Sequence record: NC_135732.1
From: a phage
DNA length: 64,000 bases
Strand: one strand, 5' to 3'
Positions within the stretch are counted from its first letter, which is position 1. Every line of letters begins with the position of its first letter. Positions 13-51,391 of the stretch are shown here, piece after piece. The notes beneath the pieces are model-generated. The model was given only the letters and a program-made list of their open reading frames with translations. It was not told the DNA's origin and did no database searches. A program made the translations under genes and the position numbers.

Positions 13-113
13 GGTGCTAGGTGATGGAATCGAACCACCTATGTATTCAACGACTACCTCGTCTATTTTCAGGATTAAAAATCCTCGCCCTTGCCAAAGG
101 GCTTACCTAGCTC
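13..113 (-). tRNA. tRNA-like element, atypical (about 99 nt); possible degenerate or insert-containing tRNA
   Basis: Minus-strand read: 7-bp acceptor stem GCTAGGT/ACCTAGC, D-arm GCCC-loop-GGGC, canonical T-arm GGTGG-TTCGATT-CCATC. No clean anticodon arm; best guess loop UUUUUAA (anticodon UUU) followed by a ~30-nt extra region. Confidence 0.35.
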
Positions 114-209: not shown

Positions 210-300
210 TGGCTGAGGGTAATGGAATCGAACCATCATCAAGTCATCCTCAACGGGACGGTTTTCAAGACCGCTTGAGCACCATTGCTCCCTACCCTCA
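210..300 (-). tRNA. tRNA-Ser (anticodon UGA), long variable arm, CCA encoded
   Basis: Hand-folded on minus strand: acceptor TGAGGGT/ACCCTCA, anticodon loop CTTGAAA, T-arm GATGG-TTCGATT-CCATT, 3' CCA at 210-212. Confidence 0.75.
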
Positions 301-414
301 TTTATAAACAATACTGATAATGACACTGATTTTCGAGCAGTTAGTGACTAGTATAAACGACGATAAATATCAATGCCATTATCTGTATGATTTATGCATT
401 TAAAACTATAAATT

Positions 415-501
415 TGGTGGGGAGTGGTGGAGTCGAACCACCCGAGTCGCAATGACAATAGATTTACAGTCTACACCGCTACCCCTACGGGATAACTCCC
501 C
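415..501 (-). tRNA. tRNA-Tyr (anticodon GUA), long variable arm, CCA encoded
   Basis: Acceptor GGGGAGT/ACTCCCC, anticodon stem GTAGA/TCTAT with loop CTGTAAA, T-arm GGTGG-TTCGACT-CCACC. Confidence 0.75.
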
Positions 502-505
502 AATT

Positions 506-580
506 TGGCACCCCGTACTGGACTCGAACCAGTGTCAACGGCTTAGAAGGCCGCTGCTTTATCCACTAAGCTAACAGGGC
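506..580 (-). tRNA. tRNA-Arg (anticodon UCU), CCA encoded
   Basis: Acceptor GCCCTGT/ACGGGGT (with G:U pairs), D-stem GCTT/AAGC, anticodon stem GCGGC/GCCGT with loop CTTCTAA, T-arm ACTGG-TTCGAGT-CCAGT. Confidence 0.75.
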
Positions 581-3467: not shown

Positions 3468-3514
3468 ATCTCCTGATTCTCCTTGTGTGGCAATTTTCTT
3501 TAAAATAGCAGGGA

Positions 3515-4069
3515 TTACTCCCTGCTGTCAATATCAAAACTCATTGCAATACGGTATGCCTCTTCTAATGGTAAGAGTCTCCCCCACACATCCCAACCGA
3601 CATCAAGCTGCCTGCCAAACAACTGTTGTGTGGTTCCGTGAGCATGACCGAACAGTTGGACTGATCCGTGAGGCTTTCTGTTCCACTTTGCAAACTGGTA
3701 ATGGCTCATACAGATCAAATTCTTGTTGTGGCGAAGCTCGTAATAATCTACAACCTCATGACCGAACTCTTTCATAATTCTGACAGTCGTCCTTGTGTCA
3801 TGGTTGCCACGAACAAGAATAATATGTCCGTTCAACATATTTAGAATATCTGGAAGTAAGTTGTTGATATTCTTATCATTAGTGCACGCAATATCTCCCA
3901 AGTGGAACACAGTGTCTGCAGGTGACACAACAGAGTTCCACTCGGCGATGATTCCCGCATTCATACTGTCAAGATTGTGATCATACTGAGATCTGTGTTT
4001 TTGACATGAATCAAACTCCATGACCCGCTGGTGGAGAAAGTGTGTGTCGCTTGTTACAAAGTATTTCAT
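3515..4069 (-). CDS. calcineurin-like metallophosphoesterase; candidate RNA-end phosphatase (Pnkp-type)
   Basis: Motifs SDTHF, GDIxxxND, GNHD and GHxH. Start set to MKYF at 4069; the track start 4174 overlaps the upstream gene. Confidence 0.7.
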   Translation of the reverse strand: MKYFVTSDTHFLHQRVMEFDSCQKHRSQYDHNLDSMNAGIIAEWNSVVSPADTVFHLGDIACTNDKNINNLLPDILNMLNGHIILVRGNHDTRTTVRIMKEFGHEVVDYYELRHNKNLICMSHYQFAKWNRKPHGSVQLFGHAHGTTQQLFGRQLDVGWDVWGRLLPLEEAYRIAMSFDIDSRE

Positions 4070-4076
4070 ACATTCC

Positions 4077-4487
4077 TCATTTAAGTTTAATGCAGTTTTT
4101 AAGCTGGCGTTCCATACGATCCACAACCTTGTCTGGAACATCATGAATGCTTTTATTACCGTGGCGGTTTTCAACCACGATCACGGTATAACTATACCCA
4201 TGACTGATTGCCATGTCAACATATTCCTGCACATGTTTTTCTTTTGTAAACGTATTACTTACCACGATACGGTCGTATCCCATACGCATCATATCTTCTA
4301 CGTTATCTTTGCACCATTTTGCTGCGAGTGTTACTTTACTTGCATCCCAGTTGTAATTGCCGTCATCGTCATACCAGAACATGTCGTTCTCAAAATGTGG
4401 ATACAGACCCTCTAAAGATAGCGCATTTGCCAGTGTTGATTTGCCAGACCCTGGTAGACCACGCACGATATATAGCATTTTAGACAT
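4077..4487 (-). CDS. P-loop polynucleotide kinase-like protein
   Basis: Walker A YIVRGLPGSGKSTLA resembles the T4 Pnk kinase domain. Start at MSKM (4487) with GGAGGG RBS. Confidence 0.65.
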   Translation of the reverse strand: MSKMLYIVRGLPGSGKSTLANALSLEGLYPHFENDMFWYDDDGNYNWDASKVTLAAKWCKDNVEDMMRMGYDRIVVSNTFTKEKHVQEYVDMAISHGYSYTVIVVENRHGNKSIHDVPDKVVDRMERQLKNCIKLK

Positions 4488-4608
4488 AGTGACCCTCCGT
4501 TTTAATTTCAACGGTAGTATACCTAACTGTTTTGTTAATTTCAAGTGTTGACACTAGGTTATTTGTGTGGCAGGATAGACTGACAAAATGACAAATGAGG
4601 AACGTATA

Positions 4609-5523
4609 ATGAAGTATTTTAATGCAGACGACCTGGTTGACAAAGGTCTTGTAACCAGTAGGTATTACCCAGATCTCGGGTTAAAGATCTATAAATATGC
4701 TAGAAAAGTATTTTACAACAATTTATGGCATTTGTCCCCTCGTTTACTGGAGTGCCGAGGCATTGTTGTAGGTAATGAAGGAAATGTTGTGGCATGGCCC
4801 TTCACAAAAGTGTTTAACTTGGGAGAAAACTCCACCAACCTGCCTGACAATAAGCTTGTGACTGCGGTAGAGAAAAAGAACGGATTCCTTGGTGTGGTAT
4901 CATCTCATAAAGGTGACCTATTGTTCTCAACAACCGGGTCTCTTGATTCTCCATATTGTAACCTTGCAAAGGAAACCATCCAAGAGCAATGTGGTAATTT
5001 AGATCTTATCAAGAAGGTTATGGGCAATGAAAACATGACATTCATGTTTGAAATTTGTCACCCTTCAGATCCGCATATTGTTCAAGAAGACCATGGCGCA
5101 TATTTGATAGGTTGCAGATATAATGATTCTGGAATAATGCTACCAGAAGCAGCTTTAGATGGGATTGCCAAATACCTTGGTGCAAAACGTCCTCACACTG
5201 TGCGTGAAATCCCGTTCAGCTATGCAAAAGAATTAGCCGCAGAAACAAGGGGCGAAGGGTATATGATCCGTAAGCCTTACTACCCTTATGACCTGCAGCT
5301 GAAGATCAAGTCTCCATACTACCTGGCACGGAAGGCCGTAATGAGGGGTAAAGCTTGGAAGATTTGGGATGATGATATCTTTAAACGTGTTGACGAAGAG
5401 TTTTACGGCATGGTAAACTTCATTCGTAACAATTACACAGAAGATGTGTGGAACTGCCTCCTGGAGCAGGAACGCCGTGAGATACTTGATTACTATTTCC
5501 ACAACGAGAACTATATGCAATGA
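4609..5523 (+). CDS. RNA ligase, Rnl1 family (T4 RnlA-like)
   Basis: Recalled similarity to T4 Rnl1: LECRGIVV, KVFNLGEN, and nucleotidyltransferase motif I KKNGF (Lys ~96). Start may be 4588 or 4609 (GAGGAA RBS). Confidence 0.8.
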   Translation: MKYFNADDLVDKGLVTSRYYPDLGLKIYKYARKVFYNNLWHLSPRLLECRGIVVGNEGNVVAWPFTKVFNLGENSTNLPDNKLVTAVEKKNGFLGVVSSHKGDLLFSTTGSLDSPYCNLAKETIQEQCGNLDLIKKVMGNENMTFMFEICHPSDPHIVQEDHGAYLIGCRYNDSGIMLPEAALDGIAKYLGAKRPHTVREIPFSYAKELAAETRGEGYMIRKPYYPYDLQLKIKSPYYLARKAVMRGKAWKIWDDDIFKRVDEEFYGMVNFIRNNYTEDVWNCLLEQERREILDYYFHNENYMQ

Positions 5524-5870
5524 AGAAGTTGATTGTGTGGCTGGATGACTTGAGAGATCCGTCAAATTATGGGCTCCCAGACGCTATTTGGCTAAAGAAT
5601 TCCTCCGAGTTTATAGATTTTATTAACGATAGGGGAAAGCTCTACAGACGCGTTTCTGAGTGGCACATGGACAACGACCTTGGAGAGTTGTTCGAAGGGT
5701 ACGATTGCCTATCTATGTTGGAGGAAAAATTTGTATTTGGTAAGCCCCCTGTAGTTGACAACGTGAAGATTTTCGTGCATACTTCTAACCCATCAGCGGC
5801 TCGTAAATTCATGCTTGCAGCTGACTCGTTTAAAAAGTTTGGAATAGAGATTAAACAAAACATCTACTGA
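5520..5870 (+). CDS. hypothetical protein, 116 aa, co-operonic with RNA ligase and Sir2-like gene
   Basis: ATGA start/stop overlap with the ligase gene. No recognisable family; short N-terminal strand IVWLDD. Confidence 0.5.
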   Translation: MKKLIVWLDDLRDPSNYGLPDAIWLKNSSEFIDFINDRGKLYRRVSEWHMDNDLGELFEGYDCLSMLEEKFVFGKPPVVDNVKIFVHTSNPSAARKFMLAADSFKKFGIEIKQNIY

Positions 5871-5878
5871 GGACACTT

Positions 5879-6640
5879 ATGCGACGACTGATTATTATCT
5901 CCGGTGCTGGTTTGAGCGCTGAATCTGGTATTCCCACTTTCCGATCTGGTAGCACTGCAATGTGGGAGAATTTCAGCATCGATGAGGTGTGCAACATCCA
6001 CACCTTTGCCAAGAACTACTACAAGGTGCATGACTTTTACAATGCACGTCGTGTAGCTCTAGGCGGTGTTGAGCCTAACCTTGCACATCTTCGGATCGCT
6101 GAGTGGTATTCCCGCTGGTCTGGTCGTGTGATCAACCTTACCACCAATGTAGATGATTTGCTGGAGCGTGCTGGTGTAAAACATGAAGATATTTTACATG
6201 TTCACGGGTATTTGCCAGAAATAGTCTATGAGGACGATGAAGGAAGTGACGTCATTAAGGACATTGGATACTCTGAGGTAGATGCAGGAAAGTATACCTG
6301 GGTTAAACCTAATGTGGTGTTCTTCGGAGAAGTAGCTCCGAAGTATACAGACATGTATGACCTGTTGACTTCTCTTACAAGCAATGATATGGTTATCCTT
6401 GTAGGGTGTTCCAACACAGTTATCAATTTTAACTGGGAGCTATTCCCTGCCTGCAATAAGGGCACCAAACTGCTGATCGTTAACAAATACGACTCACAGC
6501 ATCTAGAGGAGAATGGCATTTCACGTAGTGATATTTACCAGTACGAGGATCGCGGCATCCCGGTTTGGTTTAACGGGGCGGTTGACGCTTTCTCTGATAA
6601 AACATTCATTGAGACCGTAGAAAACTTTATGGAACTTTAA
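5879..6640 (+). CDS. Sir2-family (sirtuin-like) NAD-dependent protein lacking the zinc ribbon
   Basis: Sirtuin motifs GAGLSAESGIPTFR, TTNVDDL, HVHG, VVFFGE and VGCS..VINF..LLIVN. No CxxC...CxxC module after HG. Confidence 0.8.
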   Translation: MRRLIIISGAGLSAESGIPTFRSGSTAMWENFSIDEVCNIHTFAKNYYKVHDFYNARRVALGGVEPNLAHLRIAEWYSRWSGRVINLTTNVDDLLERAGVKHEDILHVHGYLPEIVYEDDEGSDVIKDIGYSEVDAGKYTWVKPNVVFFGEVAPKYTDMYDLLTSLTSNDMVILVGCSNTVINFNWELFPACNKGTKLLIVNKYDSQHLEENGISRSDIYQYEDRGIPVWFNGAVDAFSDKTFIETVENFMEL

Positions 6641-6653
6641 AAGGAGACCTTTA

Positions 6654-7367
6654 ATGCTGAATACTAAACTGATCGACAACCTGGAAAAACTGTCTCAGCC
6701 TGAAAACTATCTTTGGTCTGCCAACTGGGTGGAAAACTGGAACCGTGTGGCAGCTAAAGTGAAAAAATCATACACACCATTCGAATTACAGCTTAGCTTC
6801 ATTGAGGAAGAGTTCAATGAGGTTTTGGAAGAGCTGGAGAAAGGTGATGGTGGAGATCACCTGCTAAAAGAGGCCTGCGATCTTCACGTTGTCACAAGTT
6901 ATGCCGCTTATCTTGTTAATGATAATCACGAAAAGTGGTCAAACCTGTTTGATAATCCACGAGGTCTTAAGTTCAAGATCGGTGAGTTCTATGATACACT
7001 GATCGCTGCGAAAAACACATCCAAGCAAAGAGCGTCAGCTTACCGCTTAGCGGAGTTGTCAACAGCTTTGCTGTTCCAGCTTCGCGGCGATGTGTGTGGG
7101 ATGATGCGGAAGGTTCTCAAATCCAATGACAGCAAGTTTGCACGGATCAACCATCTACGATATTCTCACGGTGCCAGTGCAGATATGTCTACTGAATTGC
7201 TCATAGAGTTAGAGATTGAAGATCTTGAGCGTCGTTTTGGTGGTCGCTACGAAGGTTTCGTTGCTAAAGAGGAGTTCTACAACGGTAATAAAGTTATTAT
7301 ATTCCTTGACAGTAAAGGTAAGATTATGAAGCCTTCGAGCTTCAAGGATGTAACAGAGTATATTTAA
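6654..7367 (+). CDS. hypothetical protein; possible MazG-like NTP pyrophosphohydrolase
   Basis: 237-aa ORF; segment FIEEEFNEVLEELEKGDGGDHLLKEACD resembles a MazG/all-alpha NTP-PPase EExxE helix. Weak. Confidence 0.4.
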   Translation: MLNTKLIDNLEKLSQPENYLWSANWVENWNRVAAKVKKSYTPFELQLSFIEEEFNEVLEELEKGDGGDHLLKEACDLHVVTSYAAYLVNDNHEKWSNLFDNPRGLKFKIGEFYDTLIAAKNTSKQRASAYRLAELSTALLFQLRGDVCGMMRKVLKSNDSKFARINHLRYSHGASADMSTELLIELEIEDLERRFGGRYEGFVAKEEFYNGNKVIIFLDSKGKIMKPSSFKDVTEYI

Positions 7368-7372
7368 CAACA

Positions 7373-7398
7373 TAGCCGGGATTACCCGGCTTTACTTA
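7373..7398 (+). terminator. rho-independent terminator
   Basis: Hairpin AGCCGGG-attac-CCGGCT followed by a T-rich run. Confidence 0.6.
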
Positions 7399-7429
7399 TT
7401 ATGGAAAGTATGCAGTGAGGTAGTTAGTT

Positions 7430-7738
7430 ATGTACAAGCATTCCAGAGATCTTGAAAAAGATGCTGTGTTTGGCGACCAGATGAAGGAGCTGATCAAACT
7501 TATAGGTAGAATGGAAGATAAGTTTGACACTAAAATCTACATCGATAGCAAGATCTTCAACCACAAAATATGGACAAATGTGTGTGTTGGGCTACATGGT
7601 GATAAAGATATTGTAAATTTGGTTGTAATAAAGTTCATAGTGTGGCAGAATAGGACTATACGTTATTCCGATCCACACTTACTTGTTTATCCTATAAAAG
7701 ACCTACTACAGAAGGAGGACTGCAATGCCGTTATTTAA
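7430..7738 (+). CDS. hypothetical protein
   Basis: 102-aa ORF. Confidence 0.45.
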   Translation: MYKHSRDLEKDAVFGDQMKELIKLIGRMEDKFDTKIYIDSKIFNHKIWTNVCVGLHGDKDIVNLVVIKFIVWQNRTIRYSDPHLLVYPIKDLLQKEDCNAVI

Positions 7739-7994
7739 TCTTGCTAAACCTGTAGAAGCACACCAGTTTGATGGAAGCTCTTCATCAGTATCTGATCTGC
7801 AACGGTGGATTGATACAGGTGTGTTTACATCGTCACCTGTTCGGACCAGAGATATTCGTCGCATGTGTGAGCTTGTTGAGCCGTTTGGCAACTTGGTTTT
7901 GTACCAGGGAGATTGGTTAGTTGACTTTATGGGAGACTGGTTGGTAATGAGTAAAGAAGAGATGTTTAAAATTTTTAAGGAAGAGGCCGAGTAA
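7725..7994 (+). CDS. hypothetical protein
   Basis: 89-aa ORF, overlapping stop/start with neighbours. Confidence 0.45.
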   Translation: MPLFNLAKPVEAHQFDGSSSSVSDLQRWIDTGVFTSSPVRTRDIRRMCELVEPFGNLVLYQGDWLVDFMGDWLVMSKEEMFKIFKEEAE

Positions 7995-9277
7995 TGCATC
8001 AAATCAAAACAACACTGTACGCACTGAACAAAGATGGCAGCTACCAACAGTGGAAAGTATTCACTGATGGCGAAAAGGTTATCGTAGAGTTTGGCAAGCT
8101 TGACGGTAAATTGCAGTACAAAGAGACGGTATGTACACCTAAAAACGTAGGTCGTGCCAACGAGACTACAGCTGAGCAACAGGCCGAGCTTGAGGCTATC
8201 AGCAAGTGGGAAAAACAAGTCCGTCTGGGGTATGTTGAAAACATGGAAGATTGCGAGCAGGGTGTTGATCTTTTACCTATGCTGGTGCATGACTACCTGA
8301 AGCGTGGCAAGGCACTTAAATTACCTTGCTGGATCTTGCGTAAGTTAGATGGCCTTCGTCTGCTTGTTGTTTTCCAAAATGGTGAGCCTAAATTTATTTC
8401 CCGTGGTAATAAGTCCTACCCTATTCAAGGAAAGCTTTTAGAGCAACTTCGTTCTTTCCATTCTACCACTGGGATTAAACAACTTGATGGGGAACTATAC
8501 ATTCATGGTCTTCCTTTGCAGAAAATAGTGTCTCTTGCTAAACGGTGGCGCACACAGGAAGAGATTCAGGCCGAGATCGATAAAGACTATGAGGCAGATA
8601 AAAAACGCCGTCATGCAGCAATTAAGGCAGGCTTATCAACATACAAAAACTTCAACAAGGTAGATATTCCTGTCGATGTTGAGCCTGTTCGTGATGATTT
8701 GCGTTACGGTGGATACTGTAGCTACGATCTGGAGTATCACATTTTTGATATTCCTAGCGACAAGGTGTGGTGGGATCCAGAAACAGAGTCTGGACGCTGC
8801 AAGGATCTTATGGATGCAGAGGATACCGTTACCACTCTGATGCTTGATCATATCAAGGTTGTTGACGCAGAGCTTGCGTACACAGTTGATCATTGCGAAG
8901 AATCTGTTGGTATATTCATGTCCGAAGGATATGAAGGTACTATCATGCGTAATTTCTGCGGTAAATATGAGTATGGTCAGCGAACATCTGAAGCATTGAA
9001 ATGGAAAAAGTTCAACGACGCAGAGGTGAAAGTTATTGACGTTGAGAAAGATAAGAATGATGAAGGTGTTCTTATCTGTGTTGACAAGGAAGGTGTTGTT
9101 GTTAAAATGAAGATGAAAGGCACGCACGAGGAGCGTAGCTATGACAGAATGCAGGAAATGATCGGCAAGTTTGTCACCTTCAAATATCAAGCAAGGACAG
9201 AAGACAACAACTACCAATTCCCTGTCGGTATCTGCGTCCGAAATGTTAACCCAGACACTTGGGAGGTGCTTGAATGA
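7994..9277 (+). CDS. ATP-dependent DNA ligase
   Basis: Ligase motif I RKLDGLR, motif III DGELYIHG, motif IV EGTIMR, motif V KWKK. Confidence 0.8.
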   Translation: MHQIKTTLYALNKDGSYQQWKVFTDGEKVIVEFGKLDGKLQYKETVCTPKNVGRANETTAEQQAELEAISKWEKQVRLGYVENMEDCEQGVDLLPMLVHDYLKRGKALKLPCWILRKLDGLRLLVVFQNGEPKFISRGNKSYPIQGKLLEQLRSFHSTTGIKQLDGELYIHGLPLQKIVSLAKRWRTQEEIQAEIDKDYEADKKRRHAAIKAGLSTYKNFNKVDIPVDVEPVRDDLRYGGYCSYDLEYHIFDIPSDKVWWDPETESGRCKDLMDAEDTVTTLMLDHIKVVDAELAYTVDHCEESVGIFMSEGYEGTIMRNFCGKYEYGQRTSEALKWKKFNDAEVKVIDVEKDKNDEGVLICVDKEGVVVKMKMKGTHEERSYDRMQEMIGKFVTFKYQARTEDNNYQFPVGICVRNVNPDTWEVLE

Positions 9278-9400
9278 TGTAGGAAGGTTCAGTAGGTAAC
9301 GGTAGCCAATTGAATGATGGTTTTCAATCGGCACCTACATAACCACACTGTGTAGTGTTGTTGATCGTGTTAGTTATGAGTAAACTGGAGAGTATGAAAA

Positions 9401-10169: not shown

Positions 10170-10616
10170 ATGAAGTCTGAACGCAGGCTTATTGTGCAAC
10201 TGATCCCAGAAACAGCTTGGTATAATAACCTCCGAAACGCTGTGAAGAAGAGTGAGTGGGATAAGATACGTAAGAAGTGCTATAGAGAAGCCAACTACAC
10301 TTGTGAGGTGTGCGGCGGTAAAGGCAGCAAACACCCAGTGGAGTGTCATGAACTTTACACTTTCGAAGAGGGAGTGATCCGGCTTGTCGGACTGATAGCA
10401 CTGTGCCCGGATTGTCACACATCGGTGCATCCTGGGTTAGCAAATATCCGTGGAAAGTATGCTCAGGCAGTTAATCAGTTGGCTAAGGTGAATAAGATCA
10501 CCAAGAGTATGGCAGAGGCGTATTACCGAGACTGCTTTGCAGAGTGGCGTGAGCTTAGTAAAGTTCCAGAATGGAAGACTGACTTTTCGTGGATAGAGGG
10601 TTACCTTGATGGCTAA
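10170..10616 (+). CDS. putative HNH-type zinc-finger nuclease
   Basis: Cys/His motifs CEVCG...HPVECHELY...CPDCH. Start moved to ATG 10170; track start is GTG 10101 overlapping the upstream ORF. Confidence 0.45.
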   Translation: MKSERRLIVQLIPETAWYNNLRNAVKKSEWDKIRKKCYREANYTCEVCGGKGSKHPVECHELYTFEEGVIRLVGLIALCPDCHTSVHPGLANIRGKYAQAVNQLAKVNKITKSMAEAYYRDCFAEWRELSKVPEWKTDFSWIEGYLDG

Positions 10617-10899
10617 GAGACCTGTAAAAGAGAAATTCGATAAGACAGCTTTTGTATTCGATACACCTCTGGACGACATCATTAGAGGTATGCAATCATT
10701 GTATCGGAAGGCTGAATCTGAGCAGCTGTCGGAATCAGAACTTTACTGGCTCGGTTGGTGGGAGTTAAACCTGCCTAAAGCTGAAAGTTCTTCTCTGAGA
10801 ACTGTTAAAACGTGCGCCCAAGAAAACGCTGCACTTGGAATCTACCACAAAAGGAAAAGATCAACAAAAAGCTCTCCAAGAAAGACTAAAAAGTCTTGA
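10606..10899 (+). CDS. hypothetical protein
   Basis: 97-aa ORF with basic C-terminus. Confidence 0.4.
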   Translation: MMAKRPVKEKFDKTAFVFDTPLDDIIRGMQSLYRKAESEQLSESELYWLGWWELNLPKAESSSLRTVKTCAQENAALGIYHKRKRSTKSSPRKTKKS

Positions 10900-10925
10900 C
10901 AAAAGTGTTATTAATCTGATATTAT
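10896..10925 (+). promoter_or_regulatory. sigma70-like promoter
   Basis: TTGACA, 18-bp spacer, TG-n-TATTAT extended -10. Confidence 0.55.
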
Positions 10926-10958
10926 CGGTCAGATATCTATAAACTAGGAGAACTAGAT

Positions 10959-11267
10959 ATGCTTAAAATTTTTATTGTTGAAGATAAAGATATTGTCCAG
11001 TTGTATGCAAACGAGAATCATAAAGGTATGATTCTGAAGAAGGCAAGCAACCTTCATGAAAACACAATTCAACCTGGCGATGTAATTAAGATCTGTGGTT
11101 ATATGATACCAGACTCCTTGATGAAAATAACCCACCACTGGGGGTCTAATCCGTTCCTTTTTGAAAAGTATTGGGATGTTGAGTCACTTATTGCAGAGAG
11201 TGATGATGCATTCCATTACAGCATCCAACCATCTTGCAGAATAACTAACAGGAGGGTCTTTGAGTAG
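10959..11267 (+). CDS. hypothetical protein
   Basis: 102-aa ORF downstream of the promoter. Confidence 0.5.
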   Translation: MLKIFIVEDKDIVQLYANENHKGMILKKASNLHENTIQPGDVIKICGYMIPDSLMKITHHWGSNPFLFEKYWDVESLIAESDDAFHYSIQPSCRITNRRVFE

Positions 11268-12399
11268 AGAATATCCACTTATTGAGTCCATAGATTGTCT
11301 GGCTGATCTTCTTGAACCTGACGCTATAGTTTATTATGACTTCGATCAGGTTGCATATCAAGCTGCAGCAAGTTGTGAAAAAAGGACAATTGAGGTAACA
11401 CACAAAGCCTCCGGACGTAAGAAGATGTTTAAAACACGAACAGAGTTCTGGGGGCGGCAGAAGAACACAGTTGGTGGTTGGTTAAAAGCTGAGAATACCA
11501 ACCGTGAAGCTGCATGTAAAAAGGCTGGCAAGGAGTTTATTCCGTGGACACGAGAAGATTTCGATGTCTTGGATATCCAAACCCCTGATCCTGTAGAGAA
11601 CTGCTTGCACACAATTAAGTGTAAAGCGAATGCAGTCCTTAATTATCTCGGTATTCCGGAAGATCGGTGCGTGGGGGTACTTGGAGGCACAGGTAATTTC
11701 AGACTAGATCTTCCCATGCCGGAAAGATATAAAGCCAACCGTAACAATACTCTTCGACCACTGCTGCTTGGAGATGCAAGACAGTATCTCCAAAAGCAGT
11801 ATAATGCTCAAGTGATCAACGGTATCGAGGCTGACGACTGGTTAGCTATCCAGCAATTTGAAGGTTGGAACCACTACCAAAAAACAGGTAAGTTCAACAA
11901 GTTTATTATCTCTATTGATAAGGACCAAAGAACACTGCCGGGGCTTGTGTTCGATCCCATGCGAAACGATAAGGGAGATTTTGTAAGGGAAACCCCTATG
12001 CTGATCGATAACGGTATGGGGAACATCTTCATGAAGCCTAATGGAGAGGTTGGTGGTTACGGAATGCTGTTCTTCGGATACCAAATGCTGTGTGGTGACT
12101 CTGCCGACAATATCAAGCCGTATCAAGGACTTATCGGTAAGGGTAAGTTCGGGGATGCCTCAGCATTCTACCTACTGTCTCAGTGCAGCACTCCAAAGGA
12201 GATGTGGGTGGCTATTATTGATCAGTACAAGAAGTGGTTCCCGAAAGGTGTTGTTAAGTATACTGACTTCAATGGTGTTGATCGTAGAATTTCCGTAGGT
12301 CAATGGATGAGTATAATTTTTGACTGTTTGTATATGAAGCGAACATTCAATGATCAAACAAAACTTGTTAACGTTCTCAGAAATGTTGGAGCAATTTGA
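11260..12399 (+). CDS. 5'-3' exonuclease / flap endonuclease (T4 RNase H-like)
   Basis: Motifs YKANR and GIEADDW, N-terminal acidic YDFDQ; resembles Pol I 5' nuclease and T4 rnh. Confidence 0.7.
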   Translation: MSREYPLIESIDCLADLLEPDAIVYYDFDQVAYQAAASCEKRTIEVTHKASGRKKMFKTRTEFWGRQKNTVGGWLKAENTNREAACKKAGKEFIPWTREDFDVLDIQTPDPVENCLHTIKCKANAVLNYLGIPEDRCVGVLGGTGNFRLDLPMPERYKANRNNTLRPLLLGDARQYLQKQYNAQVINGIEADDWLAIQQFEGWNHYQKTGKFNKFIISIDKDQRTLPGLVFDPMRNDKGDFVRETPMLIDNGMGNIFMKPNGEVGGYGMLFFGYQMLCGDSADNIKPYQGLIGKGKFGDASAFYLLSQCSTPKEMWVAIIDQYKKWFPKGVVKYTDFNGVDRRISVGQWMSIIFDCLYMKRTFNDQTKLVNVLRNVGAI

Positions 12400-50486: not shown

Positions 50487-50681
50487 TTACAGATTGCTCC
50501 AGTACAATCGGCATTTACATTTTGGGCAATGAGGTTCTTTTATGTAATAACCATCAGTCTTTGGAACACTTTTTGGTGCAGTTTTAAGATTGTACCTGGT
50601 AAAACATCGGAAGCAGGTTACCTCTCCCACCTGTTGATCGTTGATCCACTCACCAGAGTAAAGCTCTTTCTTGTTTCTCAT
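50487..50681 (-). CDS. small zinc-ribbon protein
   Basis: CFRC...CPKC; start ATG 50681 after GGGAGAG RBS. Confidence 0.4.
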   Translation of the reverse strand: MRNKKELYSGEWINDQQVGEVTCFRCFTRYNLKTAPKSVPKTDGYYIKEPHCPKCKCRLYWSNL

Positions 50682-50932
50682 AATTCTCTCCCAAATCATC
50701 TGCAATCTTATACCAAAATCTCCAGCCAGAAAGCACACGGGAACACTTTGAGGATTGAATCTTTACTTGGCTCGGAAGTTCTTTTTCCGTATGGTAGGTA
50801 GAAATACCCTCCTGCAGATTCGAATATAGCTCCTTCGGTTGTATCTACCACAGCAAGAATTAAGATTTTAGTCTCCACAGTGCTCTCCTCTCTTAGTTGT
50901 TGTGGAAACTATATCACCTCAGAAGATGGTCG

Positions 50933-51391
50933 TCAACACTTTTTGTACTCCACCACGATAATATCCATATCAAAAGTGGCAAGGTTAATAACGTCCTCTA
51001 CGTGCTCCCACTTCAAACCGCCTATGCCGCACCCGATCTTAGGGATGTAGAATGGTAAAGTCGATCCACCGAATACCTCGTTGACTAGCTCAAAGCCTTT
51101 CAGGATTGAGAAATATTCAGCATTAGGTCCTGGGTAGAACTGAGTATACAGATTGATTCCGTAGACAATACCTCTCGGAGATAAGTGCTCCCATCGGGAG
51201 AATGCACCCAGTTTACTTAGGCAACCGTGTCTAGTCTCTTTGTCGGCTGACAATGCTTGAGGGAACTCACGGGCAATATCTTTCGCTATGCCTGCACCCA
51301 TTGTGTGAAAGCAGTTACAACCGTGGATCATGTGTCCTGCCCCTTTCTTGAAAAGGGAGATTAGATCTCCTTCTACAGTATCAATAATCAC
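50933..51391 (-). CDS. macro-domain protein (ADP-ribose binding/processing)
   Basis: Segment GDLISLF...HMIHGCNCFHTMGAGIAKDI aligns by eye with the macro-domain GDIT...VNAAN..GGGV block; C-terminal GCGIGG. Start uncertain (GTG 51391, or ATG 51472/51490 with long overlap). Confidence 0.65.
   Translation of the reverse strand: MIIDTVEGDLISLFKKGAGHMIHGCNCFHTMGAGIAKDIAREFPQALSADKETRHGCLSKLGAFSRWEHLSPRGIVYGINLYTQFYPGPNAEYFSILKGFELVNEVFGGSTLPFYIPKIGCGIGGLKWEHVEDVINLATFDMDIIVVEYKKC

Follow-up and report, generated by a model that had tools for sequence, protein, structure and literature searches.

A zinc-ligand-less phage sirtuin and its cREC neighbour in a gene cluster of rV5-like phages, with a predicted role in NAD+-linked RNA repair

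Two adjoining genes on the plus strand (positions 5520-5870 and 5879-6640) of a 64,000-nucleotide stretch of phage DNA from record NC_135732.1, referred to throughout as the window, encode a cREC protein (a cyclic-phosphate-processing domain of receiver fold) of 116 amino acids and a sirtuin of 253 amino acids that belongs to a phage-specific clade devoid of zinc ligands. The window derives from an rV5-like Vequintavirus that infects Escherichia coli. The explanation that we favour, although only tentatively, is that both proteins are part of an accessory, NAD+-linked module for the repair of RNA breaks in rV5-like phages, and that this module likely restores transfer RNAs cut by host anticodon nucleases. 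The anatomy of the module is established from its genes, and the chemistry set out below is predicted.

The arrangement is already published for the rV5-like lineage, in the form of a computational prediction. In 2022, Iyer, Burroughs, Anantharaman and Aravind (Viruses 14:1977; PMC9503650, section 3.7.3) described three neighbourhoods around a distinct clade of phage sirtuins, of which the second (configuration 2; prototypes Escherichia phage V5 and Proteus phage Mydo) links a sirtuin to cREC, a T4-like tRNA ligase, a MazG pyrophosphatase and a nucleotide kinase, to which a calcineurin-like phosphoesterase is in some cases added. Those investigators predicted that the sirtuin acts in the manner of KptA/Tpt1 and strips the 2'-phosphate left by the opening of a cyclic phosphate, and that opening of the cyclic end, or else processing of the by-product ADP-ribose cyclic phosphate, falls to the accessory phosphoesterases (PMC9503650). 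All six components are present within positions 3515-7367 of the window, which is itself rV5-like, and no structural difference from configuration 2 was found. The other two published contexts, in which the sirtuin accompanies HAD_SAK_2 in T5-like phages and Nudix and cREC in jumbo phages, were likewise reproduced. The present analysis adds: (i) that a beta-module is kept in the sirtuin despite the loss of its zinc ligands; (ii) that residues Y54, R58 and H109 are invariant; (iii) that the sirtuin can be detached from the remainder of the cluster; and (iv) that the genes are dispensable according to transposon sequencing.

The sirtuin

An earlier reading of the window, made from the sequence alone, had proposed both open reading frames and assigned the larger to the sirtuins, and both proposals are borne out. 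The reading frames are real and are preceded by plausible ribosome-binding sites, and the 253-residue product matches the Pfam SIR2 family (E 5.5e-27; 95.3 bits, cut-off 24) as well as phrog_2162 (E 3e-109); its family is present in 1009 phage records. The AF2 model (pLDDT 90.2) displays the sirtuin Rossmann fold. Among solved structures, sequence (4e-21) and fold alike place the protein nearest to E. coli CobB, SIRT5 and archaeal Sir2 proteins, and the closest single structure is that of CobB (1s5p; Foldseek E 9e-18, TM 0.74-0.83).

The Rossmann motifs that the earlier reading had recognized are conserved across 56 homologues, in which GAGxS is nearly invariant and no variation occurs in F21-R22, F53-Y54..R57-R58, N90-V91-D92, H109-G110, K143-P144..F148-F149..E151 and G176..S178. 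The motifs of the NAD pocket and the catalytic histidine, H109, are kept, and the conserved elements include TTNVD, KPNVVFFGE and GxS; the first of these corresponds to TQNID in CobB and SIRT5, its glutamine having been replaced by threonine. Residues Y54, R58 and H109 remain invariant when homologues from jumbo phages are included, and no substitution of R57, which corresponds to the anion-binding R105 in SIRT5, occurs within the subclade formed by the rV5-like and T5-like members.

The zinc-binding module had been described in the sequence-only reading as missing altogether, and that description proved half right. The CxxC pairs are indeed absent between the HG and FGE motifs, a segment in which 112 of 122 sequences carry at most one cysteine, as compared with four in CobB; the four-cysteine structural zinc site is missing, and distant members of the family display no CxxC arrangement either. 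The insert itself is not absent, since the segment counts 38 amino acids to the 41 of CobB, and the model shows three beta-strands there at a pLDDT of approximately 95. The phage sirtuin has lost the zinc ligands and kept the beta-module.

The cREC protein

The 116-residue protein, for which no family had been recognized from the sequence, is a cREC: it matches Pfam family PF20274 (cREC_REC) with an E value of 8e-15 and 55.7 bits (cut-off 27), and that domain is found in every one of the listed homologues longer than 63 amino acids. The protein is predicted with confidence to adopt a receiver (CheY-like) fold, in which the pocket of aspartate, threonine and lysine residues is intact. The genes that surround cREC in various phages include RNA ligases of the Rnl1 and Rnl2 types, Nudix domains (either adjacent or fused) and NAD synthase, such that its annotated neighbours are RNA-repair or NAD enzymes and include no two-component kinases. 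Within this sample, the association of cREC is closest with RNA ligases. The domain was named in 2021, and hydrolysis of cyclic phosphates by it is a published prediction (PMC9503650, PMC7824862).

Two distant cREC genes were also recorded, one beside an Rnl2-type RNA ligase (PF09414) in an unrelated phage of 109 kb (L082:9989-10345 with 10998-11957; the prefix L denotes a sampled locus), and the other beside an NAD synthase (PF02540) in a jumbo phage of 204 kb (L089:9998-10450 with 10501-11250).

Organization of the gene cluster

The two genes are embedded in a compact array (Table 1). The TGA stop codon of the RNA ligase gene overlaps the ATG of the cREC gene by 4 nucleotides (ATGA, 5520-5523), 8 nucleotides separate cREC from the sirtuin and 13 separate the sirtuin from the MazG-like gene, with a good ribosome-binding site at each; a terminator-like hairpin, identified by pattern match only, begins 7 nucleotides past the MazG-like stop codon. 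Because of this overlap, these short gaps and the hairpin, the four plus-strand genes look like a single transcription unit, as far as sequence features can indicate. A scan upstream of the ligase gene returned no convincing sigma-70 promoter. The kinase and metallophosphoesterase genes adjoin this unit and are divergent from it. The former encodes no phosphatase domain and is labelled as a polynucleotide kinase in phage Bas54, and the product of the latter is a candidate 3'-end healing enzyme. The reading frame of the RNA ligase opens at 4588, and a start at 4609 is likely, given a GAGGAA ribosome-binding site; a comparison of the ligase with the PDB sequences produced no match at E <= 0.01. 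Four tRNA genes lie approximately 3 kb upstream of the RNA-repair genes.

Table 1. Features of the cluster and of the macro-domain gene, in window coordinates
Feature	Position	Strand	Basis
Calcineurin-like metallophosphoesterase, 184 aa	3515..4069	-	PF12850 and PF00149; phrog_547 phosphoesterase, E 1.6e-52; start as annotated in phage ime
P-loop kinase, polynucleotide-kinase-like, 136 aa	4077..4487	-	PF13671 AAA_33, E 1.8e-10; phrog_2071; phrog_505 polynucleotide kinase, E 7.6e-10
RNA ligase, T4 Rnl1 family	4609..5523	+	PF09511 RNA_lig_T4_1, E 1.1e-14; phrog_562, E 2.8e-66
cREC protein, 116 aa	5520..5870	+	PF20274
Sirtuin of phage-specific clade, zinc-ligand-less, 253 aa	5879..6640	+	PF02146
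MazG-like nucleotide pyrophosphohydrolase, 237 aa	6654..7367	+	phrog_671, E 5.7e-22; PRA-PH match weak; AAGGAG ribosome-binding site
GC-rich hairpin followed by T-rich tail, terminator-like	7374..7391	+	Consensus scan: 7-bp stem with 6 GC pairs
ATP-dependent DNA ligase	7994..9277	+	PF01068 and PF14743; phrog_114; preceded by two small reading frames
Macro-domain protein, T4 Tk.4 / 'Poa1p-like' family	50933-51391	-	PF01661, 25.6 bits (cut-off 22); phrog_335

Region 3500-9300 is 99.9% identical to Escherichia phages ime and nomo and 98.8% identical to phage MaxBurger, which is the phage known as Bas54 and which carries the same cluster, gene for gene. In the record of phage ime, the kinase is annotated as a 'putative phosphoesterase' and the MazG-like protein as a 'putative Sir2-like protein', both of which are mislabels. 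Approximately 18-25 unannotated GenBank records designated 'Campylobacter phage' (MG065655, MG065676, MG065672 and MG065658 among them) are, over this region, 92-96% identical to E. coli rV5-like phages, and are probably mislabelled or contaminant assemblies. The tRNA cluster of the phage comprises genes for tRNA-Ser, tRNA-Tyr and tRNA-Arg at 210-580 (minus strand) and a 99-nucleotide tRNA-like gene at 13-111 (minus strand) with a four-base anticodon, which is reported by ARAGORN as 'tRNA-???' and appears as 'tRNA-OTHER' in the record of phage ime.

Neighbourhoods of the sirtuin and cREC across phages

The distribution of these genes was examined in IMG/VR loci, 59 of them retrieved with the sirtuin and 26 with cREC, in windows that extended from 6 to 10 kb to either side of each gene, together with annotated GenBank regions and domain scans. 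Four contexts emerge from the sampled loci. In the first, found in rV5-like phages and in phages of roughly 145 kb, none of the cluster components is separated from the rest, and two different gene orders occur. Three different gene orders were seen in which the metallophosphoesterase accompanies the RNA ligase and kinase; the MazG-like gene co-clusters in rV5-like, PVP-SE1-like and Phapecoctavirus-like loci; and an ATP-dependent DNA ligase is present in each cluster of these same three groups that was looked at.

The second and largest group is formed by the T5-like phages, in which the sirtuin is 58% identical to that of the window and is followed by a HAD_SAK_2 phosphatase labelled 'RNA repair'; this family is present in 29 of approximately 33 T5-like loci. 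The family phrog_18062 is misleadingly named 'Sir2', since it matches the C-terminal part of this phosphatase (L061:5993-6499). In T5-like phages, with HK6 as the example, the Sir2/HAD_SAK_2 pair is followed by two tandem paralogues with two DUF7415 repeats each (L061:6502-6930 and 6940-7332), which are conserved in approximately 32 loci.

The third context belongs to jumbo phages, in which the sirtuin is followed either by a Nudt16-like Nudix gene, a cREC gene (80 bits) and PIN-PhoH, as in phage G17, or by a Nudix-cREC fusion (84.7 bits) and then PIN-PhoH, as in phage XbC2. The fourth, which is outside the three configurations quoted from Iyer and colleagues (PMC9503650), is found in Phapecoctavirus-like phages, where a comparison of cREC loci (L073 and L075-L081) with Sir2 loci on the same contigs (L032-L035 and L054-L056) revealed a detached sirtuin. 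The neighbours of that detached sirtuin (DUF7275/DUF7277, phrog_8514 and phrog_9509) provided no informative Pfam or PHROG annotation. Taken across this sample, the most consistent association of the sirtuin is with an aspartate-based phosphatase (cREC or HAD), often joined by a pyrophosphatase (MazG or Nudix).

Dispensability of the cluster

A transposon-sequencing (HIDEN-SEQ) preprint covers Bas54 on E. coli K-12 (bioRxiv 10.1101/2025.11.20.689424). In those data, the sirtuin gene carried insertions at 48 of its 51 TA sites and was classified as non-essential on K-12, and the cREC gene, with insertions at 16 of 21 sites, was classified as intermediate; the RNA ligase, kinase, phosphoesterase, MazG-like and DNA ligase genes were each non-essential on that host (10.1101/2025.11.20.689424). 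The data suit a conditional accessory function, such as counter-defence, and argue against an essential role in host takeover.

A proposed NAD+-linked repair pathway

The chemistry envisaged for the favoured explanation would begin with end-healing enzymes that open the 2',3'-cyclic phosphate at an RNA break. The cREC protein would be the opener if it is a cyclic phosphodiesterase that leaves a 2'-phosphate, and the phosphoesterase is the alternative candidate for that step. The kinase would then phosphorylate the 5'-OH and the ligase would seal the break, after which the sirtuin would remove the 2'-phosphate in a reaction like that of Tpt1/KptA: an oxygen of the phosphate would attack C1'' of NAD+ with the release of nicotinamide, and the 2''-OH, activated by the catalytic histidine, would then attack phosphorus to produce RNA with a 2'-OH and ADP-ribose 1'',2''-cyclic phosphate. 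Instead of opening the cyclic end, or in addition, cREC (in T5-like phages, the HAD phosphatase) and the MazG-like protein (in jumbo phages, the Nudix protein) might break down that by-product. Chemistry of this type is attractive for a sirtuin because both of its steps parallel those of deacylation and because the catalytic histidine is invariant. The fold of the phage enzyme is the sirtuin Rossmann fold and not the ART fold by which Tpt1/KptA is defined, and any relationship between the two would be solely one of functional analogy.

Several lines of evidence support this explanation: (i) the content and tight packing of the six-gene cluster, and its persistence through a change of gene order; (ii) the recurrence of the sirtuin with cREC in unrelated jumbo phages and with HAD_SAK_2 in T5-like phages, and the presence of cREC beside an Rnl2-type ligase; (iii) the invariance of H109, Y54 and R58 throughout the clade and of R57 in the rV5/T5 subclade, together with the proximity of phage tRNA genes; (iv) the publication of the same prediction for this exact neighbourhood (PMC9503650); and (v) the dispensability of the cluster genes on K-12 in the Bas54 data, as would be expected of a conditional counter-defence function. 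Among the roles suggested in the sequence-only reading, NAD-dependent processing of RNA ends, which had been offered there as speculation, is the one that best fits both the gene context and the published prediction.

Other observations weigh against it. Two large groups of phages hold the sirtuin away from any ligase: T5-like loci have no RNA ligase, kinase or cREC gene within 6 kb of it, and in Phapecoctavirus-like phages the cREC, phosphoesterase, ligase, kinase, DNA ligase and MazG genes form an intact cluster with the sirtuin approximately 32 kb away. Repair of the T4 style, in which no 2'-phosphate arises, could be within reach of the kinase, metallophosphoesterase and Rnl1-like ligase. 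In jumbo-phage members of the sirtuin family the residue at position 57 is leucine or methionine, and the class-III Y-x-x-R motif, considered as an anion-binding signature of the whole clade, was accordingly upheld only in part. In one comparison with a clinical isolate (CFE303 or CFE311), the insertion counts in the Bas54 cluster genes did not change significantly (10.1101/2025.11.20.689424). Finally, searches of the literature yielded no experimental study of this phage sirtuin clade and no biochemical study of any cREC; a paper on CRISPRi-ART names EdH4 and not these genes.

Alternative explanations

A more conventional possibility, which we regard as unlikely, is that the sirtuin is a protein lysine deacylase of the CobB/SIRT5 type, possibly directed at acidic acyl groups, that resets the acylation of proteins, whether of host or phage, in the course of infection, and that its position in the cluster is historical. 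The identity of its closest relatives by sequence and fold, the retention of the catalytic histidine and of the FGE and GxS loops, the invariance of the class-III residues Y54 and R57 in the rV5/T5 subclade and the occurrence of the gene with no adjacent ligase in T5-like and Phapecoctavirus-like phages would all be accommodated by such an activity. Set against these are the scores of the protein against the curated CobB models of NCBIfam (NF040867 and NF001753), which fall far under their cut-offs (102.7 versus 320 bits, and 122.4 versus 243 bits), the clade-wide loss of every zinc ligand, and the recurrence of neighbours that cleave phosphates or pyrophosphates (cREC, HAD_SAK_2, Nudix and MazG) in four separate lineages.

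It is similarly doubtful that the sirtuin, an aspartate-based phosphatase (cREC or HAD) and a pyrophosphatase (MazG or Nudix) constitute a self-contained module, independent of ligation, that acts on small molecules derived from NAD+ or on ADP-ribose end caps, for example by destroying or diverting immune signals or by ADP-ribosylating terminal 5'- or 3'-phosphates. No other association recurs in both rV5-like and jumbo phages, and T5-like phages retain the Sir2/Asp-phosphatase pair of this trio. The Nudix protein of the jumbo phages is Nudt16-like, NAD salvage genes adjoin the array in XbC2, a cREC gene stands beside NAD synthase in another jumbo phage, and substrates of the cyclic ADP-ribose kind were also considered for cREC when it was named (PMC7824862). 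No signal-binding or sponge-like domain was seen, however, nor was experimental support found, and cREC itself is linked most tightly to RNA ligases: its gene overlaps that of the Rnl1-like ligase, and it stays with the ligase cluster when the sirtuin is elsewhere. A version of this proposal that we consider improbable holds that the trio is the conserved core, forming a stand-alone, NAD+-consuming pathway, in place of a core made up of 'ligase plus sirtuin'. Were it true, the chemistry would be new for sirtuins, in that the pathway might either attach ADP-ribose to phosphates at nucleic-acid ends, with subsequent trimming of the adduct, or make or destroy an immune signal derived from ADP-ribose, and the linkage to RNA ligase in rV5-like phages would represent one deployment among several.

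The sequence-only reading had also pointed to a macro-domain gene elsewhere in the window as a plausible functional partner of the sirtuin. That gene is real (Table 1), and its product displays sub-threshold similarity to the macro domain of the antitoxin DarG and to ADP-ribose 1''-phosphate phosphatases. It lies 44 kb from the sirtuin gene on the other strand, and 2792 phage records (T4-like phages included) contain a member of its family, as compared with 1009 for the sirtuin; a dedicated partnership was therefore rejected. In phage 7-11 a macro homologue is located 5.5 kb upstream of the sirtuin, with many genes between them. In principle, a Poa1p-like enzyme might finish the breakdown of a Tpt1-type by-product, with no specific link between the two genes. 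Just downstream of the macro gene, and on the same strand, the window encodes a small protein with a phage zinc-binding domain (50487-50738, minus strand; PF23903, E 1.6e-22).

It is very improbable that the sirtuin is an NADase, or an ADP-ribosyltransferase of proteins or nucleic acids, that serves host takeover and is reversed by the macro protein: the lost zinc ligands, which had been taken as a sign of such activities, and the presence in the genome of a macro gene weakly similar to DarG and TARG1-type hydrolases speak for it, and against it stand the lack of similarity to defence-type Sir2 models, the nearness to CobB and SIRT5, the retained catalytic histidine, the retention of zinc by the ADP-ribosylating SirTM sirtuins, the distance, strand and wider distribution of the macro gene, the lack of an adjacent macro gene throughout this clade (PMC9503650) and the non-essential status of the sirtuin gene on K-12. 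A PADLOC scan of the sirtuin, cREC and the MazG-like protein returned no family at E <= 0.01, and an origin by capture of a defence system was rejected on that result.

Implications

If the prediction of NAD+-linked RNA repair is right, the enzyme described here would establish nucleic-acid phosphates as a sirtuin substrate for the first time and would represent an analogue of Tpt1 outside the ART fold, and in cREC a receiver-fold domain would for the first time be seen to function as a stand-alone phosphoesterase, as opposed to a signalling switch. Phages with approximately 1000 sequenced relatives would then hold an NAD+-dependent answer to host defences that cleave tRNA. The value of the system resides not in newness but in the fact that it is clean, small (proteins of 253 and 116 amino acids) and easily tested.

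Comparison with known systems

The operons that pair SirTM with a macro gene, and the defence-associated Sir2 NADases (ThsA, DSR and SIR2-HerA), resemble the phage protein in that a sirtuin fold is used beyond deacetylation. SirTM differs from it in keeping both its zinc and an adjacent macro gene, and the defence NADases differ in that their Sir2 models do not match the phage sequence. E. coli CobB and human SIRT5, of class III, provide the best matches and have the NAD motifs, catalytic histidine and Y-x-x-R residues in common with the phage sirtuin, which departs from them in the loss of the zinc cysteines, in the change of TQNID to TTNVD, in scores below the CobB cut-offs, in its restriction to phages and in the phosphoesterase genes that surround it.

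In phage T4, the polynucleotide kinase PseT (PNK) and the ligase RnlA repair tRNA-Lys that has been cleaved by PrrC. The cluster in the window likewise combines an Rnl1-family ligase with a polynucleotide kinase, and the T4 genes, too, provide a dispensable counter-defence function; unlike PseT, the kinase here is not fused to a HAD 3'-phosphatase, and a metallophosphoesterase, cREC, a sirtuin and a MazG-like protein have been added.

In the tRNA ligase pathway of fungi and plants, Trl1 combines cyclic phosphodiesterase, kinase and ligase activities, and the 2'-phosphotransferase Tpt1/KptA acts after it. The logic proposed for the phage cluster is the same, in that a cyclic phosphate would be converted to a 2'-phosphate, a 5'-OH phosphorylated, the break sealed (here by a ligase of the Rnl1 family) and the 2'-phosphate removed at the expense of NAD+. 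The phage version would differ from that pathway in its parts: its NAD+-dependent enzyme has the sirtuin Rossmann fold where Tpt1/KptA has the ART fold, its putative cyclic phosphodiesterase has a receiver fold in place of a 2H fold, and its predicted activities would each be carried by a separate small protein.

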